From Thermoproteota archaeon (lineage in GTDB: Archaea > Korarchaeota > Korarchaeia > B14-G2): a stretch of DNA of 64,000 nt. The notes beneath the pieces were generated by a model, which searched no databases, was not told where the DNA came from, and saw only the letters and a list, made by a program, of their open reading frames with translations. The stretch spans positions 1-64,000 of the forward strand of contig JAVCBW010000008.1 of assembly GCA_037917675.1 (NCBI GenBank), in the 5' to 3' direction. Shown piece after piece: positions 4,169 through 57,186 of the stretch. Both the position numbers and the translations under genes were made by a program. Each line of letters opens with the position of its first letter. Position 1 is the stretch's first letter.

Positions 4169-4543
4169 CTATAGTATCTCTGCCTTTATGCTCTTGACAC
4201 AGCAACCTCTGCCATCAAGCATCTCTGTCTCAAGGCTTCTACAGGCTGGGCACTGGACCACAAGTGGAGGAAGGTGGCTTTCCAGCTCAGCTGATGCTGC
4301 CATGCCCTCATAGCCACACTTCAGGCACCTTATCACAGTCCTTCTGACTTCGAACCTGAGCTTCGCGTCCTCTACTATGGTTCCCTTAGATAGCACTTTG
4401 AACGAGAACTCCAGCTGCTCAAGGTTCAGGAGGCTAAGCTCACCTACCTCCAAGGTGACTTCAAGAACTCTCCTGGCGCCATGCTTTGCTGCCGCCTTAA
4501 GCACAGCCTCTAGAACTAGCTGTGCAACTGAGAATTCATGCAT
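4169..4543 (-). CDS. hypA: Hydrogenase nickel metallochaperone HypA
   Basis: N-terminal MHE motif, two CxxC motifs (CLKC, CPAC), GR near the C-terminus, adjacent to hypB. Confidence 0.95.
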   Translation of the reverse strand: MHEFSVAQLVLEAVLKAAAKHGARRVLEVTLEVGELSLLNLEQLEFSFKVLSKGTIVEDAKLRFEVRRTVIRCLKCGYEGMAASAELESHLPPLVVQCPACRSLETEMLDGRGCCVKSIKAEIL

Positions 4544-4642
4544 ACTGCCACCTGCTACCAGACCTATCTACGCAGCCTAAAAGCTTACATGTCTTACAGC
4601 GAGCCTTTTAAACTAGGGTATGCTTGGAGCCTGGTGGCTGGC

Positions 4643-4825
4643 ATGTGTGAGTTCAAGGTATTCCTTGGTGGTGAAGTGATCTTTGAGGATGTCATATACG
4701 CTAGCCAGGAGGGCTCCAACGTGGTTCTAGTAGACATACTTGGTGAGAAGAAGGTTGTGAGCTCATGTATCATAGCAGAGGTGGATGTGAGGAGAGAGAG
4801 GCTTGTGCTAAAGAAGCCTAGCTGA
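4643..4825 (+). CDS. cooT: CooT-family small nickel-binding protein (start revised to ATG 4643)
   Basis: MCEFKVFL...EDV...LVDILGEKK pattern with Cys2, GGTGG RBS upstream, divergent from hypA. Confidence 0.8.
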   Translation: MCEFKVFLGGEVIFEDVIYASQEGSNVVLVDILGEKKVVSSCIIAEVDVRRERLVLKKPS

Positions 4826-6116
4826 GAGCTGCAGCTGAAGAGAGCTTGATCTGCCTCCCTGCCTTCAGCAGCCTGCTCACCTGGAGCCAGGCTTCCAGAG
4901 GCATCAGCATCCTCTCTGATATATGCTCTAGGGCTTCCTCCAGGCTACTGTACCTAGCTGGCTTCTGCCTGAGCGCCAGCCTGACGCTCTCTCTCACCTG
5001 CCAGACTCCAAGTGGCATTATGTGCCCTGGGTAAGCCTCCCTCAGGACTATGGCTGCAGCCTGTCTCCTCCTCTCATAGAGGTGCTCTGCTACAGCTAGC
5101 CTAGCTGCATAGTAGCAGCCGCCTATGCTAGCATAGCTTGACCTCCCATAGTAGCCTTCCCAGTCTGAGCCTATAGCTATGCTTTCGCTGCTAGGGTTCC
5201 ATGCAGTATAGGGGTACCATGCCTCTATAAGCTCATAGCTCCATGGTCTTGGAGCAAGCACTACAATAAACTTGTTGTCAAGCTTCTCAGCCTCATAGAC
5301 CTCATACTCACCTAGCTCCTCAAGACACCTCACCTCTGAGGCCAGCTTCAAGCCTATCATGGAGTCTACTGCTGTTATGCTCCACCTAGTTGGGACAAGC
5401 TTCCTCTGGCTTTTCAAGCCTAGTGCACCTAGGCTGAGAGCTCTTATTATGGCTGAGATAGGCACACCACTCTTATAGAGCTCAAGCACAGCTTCAGATG
5501 CCCTGAGATCCATGTCCTCATAGGCTTTCTCAACTCTCCTATCCACCTTAACGCCTTCTGTCCTGATATCCCTGAGTGGAGCTGAGGGGCCGAATGGCTG
5601 TGAGTCTGGGTCTAGCGGCATCCTGAAGGCTGGCTTAGACCTAAGCTCCATTTCAACCTCAGCTGGCCTAGACGATATCCCTAGCTCCACGATCTCCTCT
5701 AGCCTCCTGCCACGAGGCCTCCTAGCATCAACCTCAGCTACCCCCCTCACGAGTGAGAGCCTCCCTCTAACTATCTGCTCTCTGCTAAGCTGAAGCCACC
5801 TCTCAGGCTCAGCTAGAACTGAAGTATCACCTCTATAAGGTGGGACCAGAGCGCCTACCGTCACTCTAGGATATCTAGCTCTCCCAATAAAGACATCTGG
5901 TGGGCTGCTCCCACCTACCTCCATGCTCTGGAGGAGTGGAGCTAGTGGCGTATAGGCTTTCAGCTTGAAGAGCACTGGGCAGGCAGGTCTCCCACAGAGG
6001 AGCTTTACACCTCTACAGTGTAGGCAGCTGGCTTTCTGGCTCTGGTAGCCTAGGCTAAGCCACCTGTCTAGGCTCTTCCTCCAGGGTGCTCTAGCTCTGA
6101 ACCTCTTAGCTGGCAG
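4818..6116 (-). CDS. nreA: NreA (DUF650/DUF651) PCNA-interacting DNA repair protein; start probably non-canonical, upstream of the tracked GTG
   Basis: GSSPP.VFIGR..YP, RKLVPTRWSITAVDS, GGCYYAARLAVAEHL, PLGVWQVRE, C-terminal PIP-like QIKL. The in-frame upstream CLHCRGVKLLCGRPACP has no ATG/GTG/TTG before it; CTG at 6116 is proposed. Confidence 0.85.
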   Translation of the reverse strand: MPAKRFRARAPWRKSLDRWLSLGYQSQKASCLHCRGVKLLCGRPACPVLFKLKAYTPLAPLLQSMEVGGSSPPDVFIGRARYPRVTVGALVPPYRGDTSVLAEPERWLQLSREQIVRGRLSLVRGVAEVDARRPRGRRLEEIVELGISSRPAEVEMELRSKPAFRMPLDPDSQPFGPSAPLRDIRTEGVKVDRRVEKAYEDMDLRASEAVLELYKSGVPISAIIRALSLGALGLKSQRKLVPTRWSITAVDSMIGLKLASEVRCLEELGEYEVYEAEKLDNKFIVVLAPRPWSYELIEAWYPYTAWNPSSESIAIGSDWEGYYGRSSYASIGGCYYAARLAVAEHLYERRRQAAAIVLREAYPGHIMPLGVWQVRESVRLALRQKPARYSSLEEALEHISERMLMPLEAWLQVSRLLKAGRQIKLSSAAALS

Positions 6117-25348: not shown

Positions 25349-26527
25349 ATGGAGCCTTCTGGCAGAGTGGTCTTGAGCAGGGAGGGCGTGAGGCTTGTGA
25401 AGAGAGGTGCTCTAAGCATATACAACAAGTGGGTCTTAGATGCGACTCCAGGATTGAAGGCAGGCGACGTAGTCAGAGTCTATGGGGTCGAGGAGGGCTT
25501 CCTAGGGGTGGGGTTCTATGAGACATATGGAGCCATAGGTGTCAGGCTTCTGAGCGAGGTCGACGAGCCTATCGATGAGCACTTTCTGAAGAGGAGGCTG
25601 AGAGCTGCAGCAGAGAGGAGGCTTAGGATGGGCTTAAGGGAGTTCTACAGGCTGATACATGCTGAAGCAGACCAGATGCCAGGCCTCATAGTAGACTACT
25701 ACAAGGATATAGCTGTAATCCAGTCTAGCTGTAGCGGCTTCGACAGGCAGCTTACAGTGCTAGCTGAGGCCATAGCTGACGTGCTGGGGGTGAGCCAGGT
25801 CTATGTGAGGAATGATGTCAGAAGCAGGAGAGAGGTAGGTCTCCCGACATATAGGGGTAGGCTGCTAGGCAGTGGAGAGAGCAGGACTACCATAAGAGAG
25901 GGGGCAGCTGTCTTCATAGTAGATGTGCTCAGAGGCCAGAAGACAGGCTTCTACATAGATCAGAGGCCTAACAGGATCGAGCTGGAGCACTATGTGAGAG
26001 ATGGAGATAGGGTGCTAGACCTATATAGCTATAGTGGAGGATTCGGGATACATGCTGCCCTAATGGGAGCTGAAGTCACATTCGTGGAAGAGTCTCCTAT
26101 AGCAATGGAGCTCTGTAGGGAGAACGCCAAGCTGAATGCCGTAGAAGGCCACTGTAGGTTCATACAGGCTAAGGTAAGAGACTTTCTGGCCAGGGATGAG
26201 AGCAGATATGATGTGATAGTCATAGACCCCCCTGCCTTAGCTCAGACACAGGAGCAGCTTGGAGATGCTGTAAAGACATACTTCGCAGTCAACAGGTCAG
26301 CTCTATCTCACCTGAAGTCTCCAGGTCTGCTCTTCACAAGCAGCTGCAGCTTCTTCGTCTCACAGCCCCAGTTCAGGAAGGTAGTCTTAGATGCATTCAA
26401 GAGGATAGGGTTGAAGCCATACTTCATGGGGCGTGTGAGAGGCCCCTCACCATGCCACCCAATAGACCCCAGGAGCCCTGCTACAGCATACCTCAAGGCG
26501 TACTATATCCTGGCAGAGAAGCCTTAG
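25349..26527 (+). CDS. RlmI-like class I SAM-dependent rRNA methyltransferase with PUA domain
   Basis: RLIHAEAD.MPGLIVD, GQKTGFYIDQR, VLDLYSYSGGFG, IDPP, TSSCS. Confidence 0.9.
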   Translation: MEPSGRVVLSREGVRLVKRGALSIYNKWVLDATPGLKAGDVVRVYGVEEGFLGVGFYETYGAIGVRLLSEVDEPIDEHFLKRRLRAAAERRLRMGLREFYRLIHAEADQMPGLIVDYYKDIAVIQSSCSGFDRQLTVLAEAIADVLGVSQVYVRNDVRSRREVGLPTYRGRLLGSGESRTTIREGAAVFIVDVLRGQKTGFYIDQRPNRIELEHYVRDGDRVLDLYSYSGGFGIHAALMGAEVTFVEESPIAMELCRENAKLNAVEGHCRFIQAKVRDFLARDESRYDVIVIDPPALAQTQEQLGDAVKTYFAVNRSALSHLKSPGLLFTSSCSFFVSQPQFRKVVLDAFKRIGLKPYFMGRVRGPSPCHPIDPRSPATAYLKAYYILAEKP

Positions 26528-26860
26528 CTAGCCTTCTTGCATGCTAGCTATCACAAGCTCCCTCCCCTCAACAAGCATTGTGGCAACCTTCCTCCTAGCT
26601 GAGTCGAGGCATCTCCAGACAGTCCCTCTTGAGACACCCATCCTCTCAGCTGCCTGCTCCTGAGTAAGCCCCTCATAGTCAACTAGCCTAAGAGCCTCAA
26701 GCTCATCTAGCCCCATCACAATGGGCTCAGAGCTGGAGGGGGGGCCTGTAGTGACTGGGATGACCCTAATCAGCTTAGGCATGAAGCTGATGAACCTAGG
26801 CTCCATAGGCCTGCCTCTACCCCCCCTCCACCTCCACCTGTAGCCCAATCGCACCACCAA
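26528..26860 (-). CDS. DUF134 (UPF0251) HTH protein; start uncertain
   Basis: GRP..PR, ELEALRLVDYEGLTQEQAAERMGVSRGT...L.SARRKVA. Confidence 0.88.
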   Translation of the reverse strand: MVVRLGYRWRWRGGRGRPMEPRFISFMPKLIRVIPVTTGPPSSSEPIVMGLDELEALRLVDYEGLTQEQAAERMGVSRGTVWRCLDSARRKVATMLVEGRELVIASMQEG

Positions 26861-26890
26861 GAGCTCTTCCCTAGCTTCTCTTATAAGCCT

Positions 26891-27688
26891 TCACCAGCTT
26901 AGTAGCCTGATGAACTTAGGTGGTATATGCCTTACAACATAAACTCTGCTGCTAGCCTTATAGATCTCAACACCCTCCTCGAGAGCTTTCCTAGCATCCA
27001 CAGCTAAGATGACAGGCCTCCTACACTCCCCGACTGCAGCAGCATCCTCTATGCTGCTTGACAGGTGCACCATCATTCTCCCCATGGGCTTCAGCCGTTC
27101 TGGCTCTCTGCTACTTTCGTTTCCTTTTTCACTTGTAGCAGAGAGCTTCTCGCCTCAGTTTTCATTGGTGGGCTTTCGGGGTGGAGGGGTGAAGCCCTAC
27201 ATCTATCTGCTTGTTTAGCTCTGCTCTTTCAGGCTTACCCTCCCACCACATCCTGAGCAAGCCTATCTAAGCTGGCCAGCCCCCTATAAACCCTCACAAA
27301 ACCATCATATGTCACATATACAACCCTAGTCGCTTCTGCCTTCTCTCAGCATTCTAGCTGCAGCCTCAGGTGTGGTCCCATGGTATAGGATGTCAGGTAC
27401 CTCTTTGCTCTCATAGCATAGCTCTACTGGAATCGAGTGCCCATACCTGGCACGCACTCTGCCATCTTTCAGCTCGAACCTCCCCTTGGGATCTAGCTTA
27501 GCTACAGCTTTGATGTGCTCCTCTCTAGCCCACCTGAGCCCAAGCCTCCTAGCTGCCTCTGCGAGCTCACCTACGCCTACAAACCCACATGGGTCGAGCT
27601 TAAGCCCACCTAGCTCAGGCCTATGCCTCAGCAGTAGGCTCATCAGCTTGCTCAGCCTAAGCCTCCTCTCCTCACTGAGCAGTAGCAT
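26891..27688 (-). pseudogene. kptA: RNA 2'-phosphotransferase KptA/Tpt1 split by a 243-bp insertion
   Basis: 5' part: LSKLMSLLLRHRP, DPKGRF, RARYGHS, LYHGT...MLREG. 3' part: LKPMGRMMVHLS, VY....IPP.FI. Removing 27095-27337 restores EG-LKPM in frame. Confidence 0.9.
27095..27337 (-). mobile_element. Non-autonomous IS607/IS200-IS605-type miniature element with a tnpB-3'/omegaRNA-like module
   Basis: Interrupts kptA with no target duplication beyond shared G bases. Perfect 12-bp stem GCTCTCTGCTAC/GTAGCAGAGAGC. CACCCCGAAAGCCCACCAATGAA motif. Homologous to 48977-49066. Confidence 0.75.
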
Positions 27689-27808
27689 GCAGCTAGACCC
27701 ACAGTGCACTCTGCCTTCAACGCTTCTCCACAGACCCTATACTGTACACTGAAGGCATATGCCTCCAATAGCTAAGCTTTTATTCTACCTTAAGTATGTG
27801 GCTCCAGG

Positions 27809-28219
27809 ATGGCCTTGGAGGAGATAGTGAGGTTCGGTGTAAGTGTCCCAAGGAACCTACTTGAGGAGTTCACTAGGGTGTCAAGGGAGGTGGGGTTTGC
27901 TAACAGGTCTGAGGCGATAAGGGCAGCTATGAGGCTTCTGATAATGAAGGAGGGCAGGGTAGCCTCAGCTAAGGGGGGGATAGGTGTGATCATCGTGCTA
28001 TATAGCCATGAGAAGAGAGGGTGTGAAGAGGAGGTGACTGAAGCTCAACATGAGTATAGCAGCATAGTAGTGAACTCAAGCCACATACACCTCGGAGAAG
28101 ACTGCCTAGAGATCATAGCATGCAGGGGGAGCAGTGAGGCCATAAAGGAGCTGTATAGGAGGATAGAGAGCATAAAGGGAGTAAAGTGGGCTGACCTCTC
28201 ACTTACTCCAGTCCTCTAG
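27809..28219 (+). CDS. nikR: Nickel-responsive regulator NikR
   Basis: RFGVSVP..LL..F, NRSEAIR, QH, SSHIHL...CLE. Confidence 0.92.
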   Translation: MALEEIVRFGVSVPRNLLEEFTRVSREVGFANRSEAIRAAMRLLIMKEGRVASAKGGIGVIIVLYSHEKRGCEEEVTEAQHEYSSIVVNSSHIHLGEDCLEIIACRGSSEAIKELYRRIESIKGVKWADLSLTPVL

Positions 28220-48976: not shown

Positions 48977-49066
48977 CCGCTCTGGCTCTCCGCCACTCTC
49001 ACGGCTTTGCTTCACTCACGGCGGGAGCCTTCCCTCCTCAGGCTTCATAGGAGGGCTTTCAGGGTG
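48977..49066 (-). mobile_element. Truncated second copy (right end/omegaRNA-like module) of the miniature IS element
   Basis: Minus strand CACCCTGAAAGCCCTCCTATGAAGCCTGAGGAGGGAAGG...GAGAGCCAGAGCGG aligns with the copy at 27095-27183. Confidence 0.75.
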
Positions 49067-49358
49067 AACTCCTCTCAGGGTGCTGTCTACGTGAGTTAAA
49101 GGAGGAAACAGGCATTGAGGCCAGGGTCATAAAGCATGCTGCAACAGTAGAGAGAGTGTTTGGTGACGGCTTCCACATACTCTACGTAGTCTACTGGTGT
49201 GCTCCAGAGATGACGGAGCTTAGGCTTGGACTGAAATCTCTGAGGCAAAGTGGGCTCTAGTAGAGGATCTCTCAGAGCTGGTTGGAGAGCTCCATGAGGA
49301 CACCTTAAGAATACTCGCTGAAGCAGGTCTGCTTCCAGAGCTATCAGAAGGAAGCTAG
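49063..49358 (+). pseudogene. 5'-truncated, frameshifted Nudix hydrolase
   Basis: GELLSGCCLRELKEETG Nudix-box remnant with no start codon; frame change near 49230 into TEISEAKW. Confidence 0.75.
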
Positions 49359-56926: not shown

Positions 56927-57186
56927 GATGTCACGCTATAAGGCAAGGCTCCACCTGCCCTTTTAAACCGTTGCATGCGTCATATTCCGGGGGCTCAAGC
57001 TCAGATAGCAGATGAATCCGAGGAGGGCCTCCACTATACATGCATCAAAGCTATAAGGTAGCGGAGAACTAGAACGGGTAATAGGAGCATTGGGGCTAGG
57101 TCTCAGCAGGGAGGGAGCTAGAGTGGTAGGAGGGAGCTAGTTCAATAGGAGGATTGTAGATAGAAGCCTTACCTAGCATTTAAATC

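Follow-up and report, generated by a model that had tools for sequence, protein, structure and literature searches.

The genome of a Thermoproteota archaeon (GTDB lineage Archaea; Korarchaeota; Korarchaeia; B14-G2) carries, in a 64,000-nt stretch (assembly GCA_037917675.1, contig JAVCBW010000008.1, positions 1 to 64,000; hereafter the window), a gene for Tpt1/KptA RNA 2'-phosphotransferase (kptA) that is interrupted by a short repeat. Judging from its ends and its relatives, this insert is almost certainly a non-autonomous, protein-less derivative of an IS607-family insertion sequence (IS). The fuller reading, in which the derivative has kept its ends, its promoter and the scaffold of a TnpB guide RNA (omegaRNA) and acts through the steps proposed below, is considered likely.

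An IS607-family mini-element interrupts the only kptA gene

Both parts of kptA were read on the minus strand and are split between ...LREG and LKPM..., with the last codon of the N-terminal part ending at 27338 and the C-terminal part beginning at 27094. The 243 extra nt between them (27337-27095), when translated in the frame of the N-terminal part, give RSD followed by a stop. In a genome of the same genus (G001), kptA is uninterrupted at exactly the split point and reads ...ILREGLKPMGRRMVHLSS; there the C-terminal sequence joins the N-terminal part directly, and the N-terminal part found here shares 81% nucleotide identity with this uninterrupted gene. The 243 nt therefore represent an insertion relative to an empty site. 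The two halves were the only matches to Pfam PF01885 (two of two) in the whole genome (1.78 Mb, 62 contigs, 92.7% complete). A first reading of the window made from its letters alone (the sequence-only reading) had described a 243-bp insertion with in-frame stops splitting kptA, and this was borne out by the open reading frames (ORFs), the translations and the PF01885 halves. The gene parts and the boundaries of the insert are as follows:

27338..27709, minus strand: N-terminal part of kptA (Tpt1/KptA RNA 2'-phosphotransferase), ending ...MLREG (ORF and translation; PF01885 E=3.6e-21, profile 2-119)
26891..27094, minus strand: C-terminal part of kptA, beginning LKPMGRMMVHLSS, with its natural stop at 26891 (translation; PF01885 profile 123-175)
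27095..27338, minus strand: transposed unit (protein-less mini-element of the IS607 family), 244 nt counted from the base that follows the left GG up to and including the right GG (bounds set by identity to the 99% copy at C15:9452-9207)
27339..27340, minus strand: left core GG, target-derived in the IS607 model; the preceding base is A, in the family mostly G (junction list)

The insert was found to be one of about eight full and about ten partial copies of a repeat in this genome. Eight of the 27 matches listed had E<0.01 and one of them was 99% identical over 243 nt, a recurrence far above chance. The closest copies were C15:9452-9207 (99%) and C23:242-507 (71%). The identity shared by the insert and the C15 copy starts at GGCAGAAGC and stops at ..AACGG, and a family hidden Markov model (HMM) was matched over profile positions 1-256 at 27340-27095 (E=2.9e-67), which is the extent of the element including both flanking GG. 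The length of 243 bp proposed in the sequence-only reading thus holds for the net insertion, whereas the transposed unit delimited by the identity with the C15 copy comprises 244 nt.

The junctions of the insert read GAA-GG-CAGAAGC... and ...CCAGAAC-GG-CTGAAG, with GG at both ends; no target duplication was seen in the junctions, and a search for repeats between the left and right ends revealed no terminal inverted repeats. The GG pair without target duplication, named as an IS607 trait in the sequence-only reading, fits the rule that IS607 recombines at a GG core without duplication, as described for a Clostridium botulinum IS607 element in the accessible text of 10.1101/2023.11.20.567912. 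The sole ORF inside the insert spans 32 codons (27260-27162) and contains ..LRMWWEGK..; lacking a serine-recombinase tnpA of its own, the insert is therefore non-autonomous. The kptA bases to the right of the insertion, CTGAAGC (27089-27094), resemble the first bases of the element, CAGAAGC (27332-27338). The kptA target thus looks like an end-to-end junction of the element, a likeness not seen by eye in five other copies.

A repeat misplaced within kptA by the assembler would produce the same picture, and the element is indeed a multi-copy repeat inside which the contigs of sequencing runs break. However, contigs from two public DNA runs (X1 and X2, from two studies) entered both ends from the unique kptA flank and crossed both junctions with 0 differing letters, reaching 36 nt into the insert at its right end and 12 nt at its left; these runs may include the source sample and are not fully independent of the assembly. 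Both halves of kptA, moreover, end exactly at the GG boundaries of the element. An assembly artefact is thus barely credible. No empty-site joint of kptA was listed for the contigs of the two DNA runs, a result that covers contigs only and is no proof of absence; a third run (X3) yielded no matching contig.

The insert derives from an element with tnpA and tnpB

Contig C25 of the same assembly begins inside an IS607-type element, in which a PF00239 resolvase ORF (C25:54-371) is followed by tnpB (C25:389-1471). The encoded TnpB has 361 aa (PF07282, E=1.2e-20), and its best solved relative is the IS607-derived Fanzor2 9b0l (E=1.3e-10). The right 170 nt of the insert match the tnpB 3' end and the right end of this element (C25:1-1589), including the terminus ...CCAGAACGG. 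Within the ~120 nt past the tnpB stop, C25:1499-1589 is 77% identical to the last ~90 nt of the insert, and the two right ends share the terminus ..AGAGAGCCAGAACGG. Furthermore, the right 125 nt of the insert align with the C25 right end and with 11 further tnpB-linked ends. The similarity to a tnpB-bearing IS end, on which the sequence-only reading hinged, was thus found in the right end of the C25 element.

A collection of species-representative genomes was scanned with a pattern for the shared module, which gave 87 stretches, and 80 loci were fetched. The family HMM matched 31 of the 80, all with archaeal record titles, and many of the others were chance matches in bacteria. Near-full TnpB was encoded at 11 loci, with 55-79% identity to the C25 protein, and a serine-recombinase TnpA lay upstream at 8 of these 11. 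One full element (L098) starts GGCAGAAG.., has a TTTATAA box and carries the tnpA ATG ~65 nt in; read by eye, its left end and the left 65 nt of the kptA insert correspond base for base, and the left-end profile matches it. Mini-elements of the same build as the insert occurred in Thermoproteota-titled records (L065 and L034) and in Thermococcus-titled records (L090, L023 and L033). Homology of both ends to elements with serine tnpA and tnpB confirms the view, first taken in the sequence-only reading, that the insert is an IS607 element with an internal deletion and an orphan guide scaffold for TnpB.

A guide-RNA scaffold is retained in the protein-less elements

When mini-elements were compared with full elements, the left end, a stem-loop (SL1) and the right-end module proved to be kept, and tnpA and most of tnpB to be deleted; the mini-elements also lack the ~75 coding nt that separate SL1 from the right-end module. 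In full elements, SL1 lies in the zinc-finger codons of tnpB, and the module follows the stop codon and ends ..AACGG. The parts of the kptA insert are as follows:

27257..27338, minus strand: left end, homologous to the full-length IS607 left end up to the tnpA start, with TGTGA/TATGA repeats and the promoter region (left-end HMM, match 27340-27257, E=1.1e-16)
27285..27290, minus strand: TTTATA, similar to a TATA box; SL1 has its first paired base 26 nt downstream (present in mini-elements; putative promoter)
27217..27264, minus strand: SL1, a stem-loop whose sequence comes from the zinc-finger codons of tnpB and covers LLRMWWEGK (10-bp helix, covariation), with a 1-nt deletion in its 5' strand in the kptA copy
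27095..27218, minus strand: right-end omegaRNA module with three helices, the CCCCGAAAGCCC..ATGAA core and the terminus ..CCAGAACGG (covariance model R1, 89.1 bits, E=7e-27)
27149..27172, minus strand: helix 2 (CCCACC ... GGCGAG), with two of six pairs mismatched in the kptA copy and its C15 sibling (alignment A1)
27103..27146, minus strand: terminal hairpin of 12 perfect bp with a 20-nt loop (arms 27146-27135 with 27114-27103)
27075..27094, minus strand: predicted guide portion, the first 20 nt of flanking kptA past the right GG (from the guide position in TnpB omegaRNAs)

All features listed in the sequence-only reading were located, namely the TGTGA/TATGA repeats, TTTATA, the LRMWWEGK ORF, the CCCCGAAAGCCC..ATGAA module, the 12-bp hairpin and the end ..GAGAGCCAGAACGG. 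The origin that it had suggested for LLRMWWEGK, a remnant of the TnpA helix-turn-helix, was not upheld: this stretch represents, in another reading frame, the tnpB codons of the first zinc-ribbon CxxC (..CPTCGRRLSPNGW..), and it aligns with the zinc-finger coding region of tnpB as a covarying stem-loop.

Covariation was measured against controls in which the pairing partners were slid. Over 18 sequences, the 10-bp helix of SL1 had 93.9% of its cells paired (at most 49.4% in the slid controls) and compensatory changes in 7 of 10 pairs. The right-end module (alignment A1, 25 sequences) was 88.8% paired, versus at most 55.2% when slid, with 11 of 23 pairs compensatory and a covariation score reached by 0 of 500 shuffles. 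The terminal hairpin of the family contributed compensatory changes in 8 of its 12 pairs and was 91.6% paired; helix 2, with the family consensus CCCTCC/GGAGGG, was 88.7% paired; helix 1 was the weakest of the helices and showed little covariation. When the nine protein-less copies were considered alone, the four helices remained 90.7% paired (at or below 50.5% in the slid controls), and 14 of 33 pairs had compensatory changes. The covariance model R1, which was built without the kptA and C15 copies, recognised the kptA copy at 89.1 bits (E=7e-27) and the C15 copy at 82.5 bits.

Curated RNA models, among which the sequence-only reading had named the HgcC type, did not account for the scaffold, as no Rfam 15 family covers it. 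Positions 26500-28000 of the window gave no relevant Rfam 15 match at E<=10, the sole match within the element being a spurious miRNA match to the hairpin, and the parent IS and three related loci gave nothing at E<=1 beyond a tRNA and chance rows.

Promoter and predicted transcript

In each of the eight mini-elements examined, the first paired base of SL1 had the TTTATA/TTTATATA box 26-35 nt upstream of it (26 nt in the kptA copy), and the equivalent region precedes tnpA in full elements. In archaea, transcription usually begins ~24-28 nt downstream of the point where the TATA box starts, which would place the 5' end of the primary transcript at SL1 or immediately before it. Because the element and kptA point the same way, read-through from the kptA promoter would cover the element as well. 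Transcription of the insert as an omegaRNA-like RNA is somewhat more likely than not. Among the public runs listed for the locus, none was of RNA.

The mechanism that we propose starts with a recent move by serine-recombinase TnpA acting in trans, in which recombination at the GG core would have knocked out the sole kptA. The left end would have been kept as the TnpA-binding region and the tnpA promoter. From this promoter, and by read-through from kptA, transcription would run through SL1 and the right-end module into the flanking kptA bases, and the resulting omegaRNA would carry the guide CUGAAGCCCAUGGGG.... Such an RNA could load TnpB made elsewhere, the sole close full-length TnpB in the assembly being that at C25:389-1471. 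The TnpB-omegaRNA complex would cut the rejoined site after excision, upon which the element would be copied back, a step that is doubtful for the kptA copy.

Flanking motif and targeting of kptA

The base before the left GG was G in 10 of the 13 junctions found with the left-end profile and also in L098, giving 11 of 14; this G at position -3 was absent from the kptA copy, which has A, from one degenerate piece consisting of a left end only and from one copy that aligned poorly. All well-preserved copies had ..CGG at their right ends. By analogy, the family's xGGG flank versus its ..CGG right end parallels the bacterial IS607 system, for which the accessible text of 10.1101/2023.11.20.567912 gives TGGG as the target-adjacent motif (TAM) of TnpB, the -3 G as its most discriminating base and TCGG as the right end that escapes self-cleavage. 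Following the same logic, the A at -3 would make the rejoined kptA site (..GAAGG/CTGAAG..) a poor TAM. In an intact, in-frame kptA of the G001 type, the guide match is preceded by GGGA instead of xGGG, and from the sequence AGGG would stand in register only in a kptA allele with a GGG glycine codon.

The sequence-only reading had the element targeting intact kptA alleles. This is doubtful, given the -3 A and given that the in-frame allele needs one base beyond precise excision. Cleavage of the rejoined site is doubtful for the kptA copy also because a junction base is missing and because helix 2 and SL1 have defects, and we regard it as a minority prospect that the RNA of this copy actually directs TnpB cleavage of a kptA allele. 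A search of the assembly for second targets of the predicted guide gave none with <=2 mismatches in the first 16 nt (343 sites with <=4).

Another feature of the predicted guide is a possible pairing within the insert itself. Positions 27086-27096, which comprise the last G of the right end and the first 9-10 nt of the predicted guide, are 91% complementary over 11 nt to 27187-27197. The partner is the GGGCUUCACCC stretch in the helix-1 region, which is peculiar to the subfamily of the kptA and C15 copies and pairs with the SL1 loop in a single-sequence fold; the flank of the C15 twin differs. Such pairing could sequester the guide or could be a chance match.

Evidence weighing against the proposed reading

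Several points weigh against the reading of the kptA insert as an IS607 derivative with a usable guide RNA. The net gain relative to the G001 empty site is 243 nt, where the GG-core model predicts 244, and the in-frame kptA (a 200-aa frame) is restored only when one base of the unit stays behind (offset -1). A single base is thus lacking at one of the junctions: it was either the base that follows the right GG or one G of the left-junction run, ancestrally a GGG glycine codon. A search for full-length tnpA/tnpB parents led to the same-family IS607 element at C25, whose right end is only 77% identical to the insert; the 92.7%-complete assembly contained no full-length parent for the subfamily of the kptA and C15 copies. 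Related sequences can outscore shuffles in covariation without any structure, and the slid-partner control is the stronger of the two. The kptA and C15 copies score below most of the training members from their own genome, of which seven of eight reached 95.6-126.4 bits; training members match R1 by construction, and the eighth, a right-end remnant at C61:48977-49094, scores 82.8 bits. The kptA copy and its C15 twin share the two mismatches in the 6-bp helix 2 and the 1-nt deletion in SL1. In addition, the left flank of the kptA copy is AAGG in place of the xGGG of the family and so lacks the TAM-like -3 G, and the TAM itself is deduced from 14 junctions and analogy with a bacterial homologue. 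Finally, transcription, RNA ends and TnpB binding are all things that we infer.

A net insertion of 243 nt is divisible by three, and kptA has no second copy in this genome. The insert might therefore be an RNA-level intervening sequence, removed from the kptA mRNA by bulge-helix-bulge or IStron-like self-splicing and leaving kptA functional; IS607/IS605 elements fused to group I introns do exist according to the accessible text of 10.1101/2023.11.20.567912. Nevertheless, no Rfam intron family matched at E<=10, and folding with the flanks placed the 5' junction in a hairpin loop, without two 3-nt bulges 4 bp apart (z=-1.3). The start of the putative intron and the start of the second exon are both purine-rich GAAGC and so cannot form the central helix, and other copies of the element lie outside genes. 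A length of 243 rather than 244 has a one-in-three chance of being in frame, and the in-frame length thus looks like a coincidence, not evidence for splicing. With no motif in the fold, and with junction sequences that are alike and not complementary, a bulge-helix-bulge or self-splicing intron was rejected, and splicing as a whole is highly improbable.

As the most serious alternative, the insert may be an inert scar, that is, a dead deletion derivative passively moved by TnpA, with its RNA part unexpressed or unused and the kptA knockout as its sole effect. Transposition requires only the ends, and the helix-2 mismatches, the SL1 deletion and the non-consensus -3 base of the kptA copy would suit such a scar, as would the lack of a TnpB of the cognate subfamily in the assembly. 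In contrast, all four helices are kept through compensatory changes among the protein-less copies as a class, the TATA box stands at a fixed distance from SL1 in eight of eight mini-elements, and in two archaeal lineages the founding deletion left precisely SL1 and the right-end module in place. The kptA copy itself still scores 89 bits with a model that never saw it. The class-level conservation of helices and TATA box indicates that these elements are generally kept functional as RNAs; it cannot vouch for the kptA copy. Taken together, an inert scar appears unlikely, and a protein-less IS607 derivative with its ends, promoter and guide-RNA scaffold retained is preferred.

Further copies in this genome and in relatives

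A profile built from six copies and run with nhmmer over the genome returned 25 rows at E<=1. Full-length matches (about 1-256 of the profile) were found on C23, C61, C15, C2 and C25; full but degraded or two-piece copies on C12, C53 and C21; right-end-only pieces on C8, C12, C61 (49069-48979), C1, C21 and C5; and left-end-only pieces on C8 and C23. The full R1 model identified 19 loci, of which 17 had no adjoining PF07282 match and two abutted a TnpB-domain match (C25:1465-1589 and C32:16773-16856). TnpB-domain matches with no adjoining R1 match lay at C25:24354-25678, C26:1156-1332 and C22:35414-36254, one of them with internal stops; these are presumably either decayed copies or members of other TnpB families.

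Two further module matches lie in the window. Positions 48977-49094 on the minus strand (C61) hold a right-end-only omegaRNA module (R1, 82.8 bits) between ORFs of 421 aa and 104 aa, with neither a left end nor tnpB adjoining. At 56978-57077 on the plus strand, a degraded module was matched weakly (R1, 26.5 bits; nhmmer E=0.012).

Elsewhere, the full copy at C25:34917-35185 (L004) lies exactly between two genes, one for a radical SAM/SPASM protein and one for a UbiA prenyltransferase, and the stop codon of the first gene falls in the first bases of the element. Removal of this copy, tried as a test of the boundaries by ORF restoration, gave a 748-aa frame; the test is ambiguous because the halves of this frame are the two separate genes. 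Two overlapping or tandem omegaRNA-module matches beside a left-end match at C21:131247-131489 possibly represent a nested or duplicated element.

The site of the C15 twin was also sought in G001, where the distant flank only was matched (query 6-203) and the site was not comparable. Conversely, the flanks of a mini-element that G001 carries itself (L065/L107) map in the window to 5420-4852 and 4807-4270. Between them, window positions 4807-4852 hold ~44 diverged nt where G001 has the mini-element and its near flanks, too diverged for the junction to be placed; the insertion in this region (4270-5420) differs between the two species.

Among 41 genomes searched (relatives and that of the window), R1 matches at E<=1e-5 were obtained in 21. 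The largest expansion, with 24 R1 matches, was in the relative G019 (87% complete, 1.4 Mb). A same-build mini-element in a Thermococcus-titled record (L090:1333-1415) begins a few tens of bases downstream of a tRNA gene.

Comparison with known systems

The kptA insert resembles the C. botulinum IS607 element, as far as the accessible text of 10.1101/2023.11.20.567912 describes it, in having a GG core at both boundaries with neither target duplication nor inverted repeats, and in an omegaRNA scaffold that shares sequence with the tnpB 3' end and goes no further than the right end. The same text reports a laboratory mini-IS607 without both genes that was excised by TnpA supplied in trans. In contrast to the C. 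botulinum element, the insert is natural, archaeal, protein-less and free of a group I intron, and its scaffold belongs to a sequence family outside Rfam 15. The TnpB is only distantly related; identity is 55-79% within the archaeal relatives, and no close bacterial match was sought.

Stand-alone omegaRNAs without effector or transposase, mobilised and acting in trans, are known from Altae-Tran 2021 as summarised in the part of PMC10691335 available to us, and the available part of PMC10055086 (Meers 2023) discusses palindrome-associated transposable elements (PATEs), which are non-autonomous IS200/IS605 elements. As far as these sources go, the insert shares with both the absence of effector and transposase and the retention of ends and omegaRNA, which in their case works with a compatible effector elsewhere in the genome. 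Those elements belong to IS200/IS605 (tyrosine HUH TnpA, hairpin ends, single-stranded DNA transposition) or to IscB and are mostly bacterial. In the insert, unlike in them, the ends are of the IS607 type, the first scaffold helix follows the fused tnpA promoter at a distance of 26-35 nt, and the scaffold region has lost 75 nt from its interior. Like classical archaeal miniature inverted-repeat transposable elements (MITEs), it is a short, multi-copy, protein-less IS derivative that is mobilised in trans and can disrupt genes; the name MITE fits loosely, as the insert has no terminal inverted repeats and no target-site duplication. A literature search that stopped short of subscription journals and preprint supplements found no description of omegaRNA elements that occur naturally in archaea, derive from IS607 and are protein-less. 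The principle of a stand-alone guide-RNA element is already established, and the kptA insert adds a clean example to a known kind of system.

Significance

The findings leave the known picture of how OMEGA systems function unchanged. They add a natural archaeal IS607-type stand-alone TnpB guide-RNA element caught in a datable event, with a twin at 99% identity, a sister species whose site is empty, and a target gene that is otherwise intact, and they mean that this lineage tolerates loss of its sole KptA/Tpt1. By natural deletion, the protein-less copies outline a minimal scaffold, SL1 plus a 125-nt module, which is useful for trimming the omegaRNAs of thermophilic TnpB proteins. The xGGG flank versus the ..CGG right end extends to archaea, by analogy, the self/non-self rule measured in one bacterial IS607.

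We tentatively raise a further possibility, which has about the same modest standing as cleavage directed by the kptA copy: that the mini-elements are selected as self-contained guide-RNA genes on a transposon, in which a tnpA promoter is set at transcription-start distance from an omegaRNA reduced to SL1 and the right-end module, without the 75-nt spacer. The build recurs in Thermoproteota- and Thermococcus-type genomes, and in this genome it exceeds TnpB genes by ~17 to 2. If it were true, one TnpB would be programmed by dispersed, transposing guides, a step towards a guide array, and TnpB could hold knockouts such as that of kptA in place by cutting revertant alleles.

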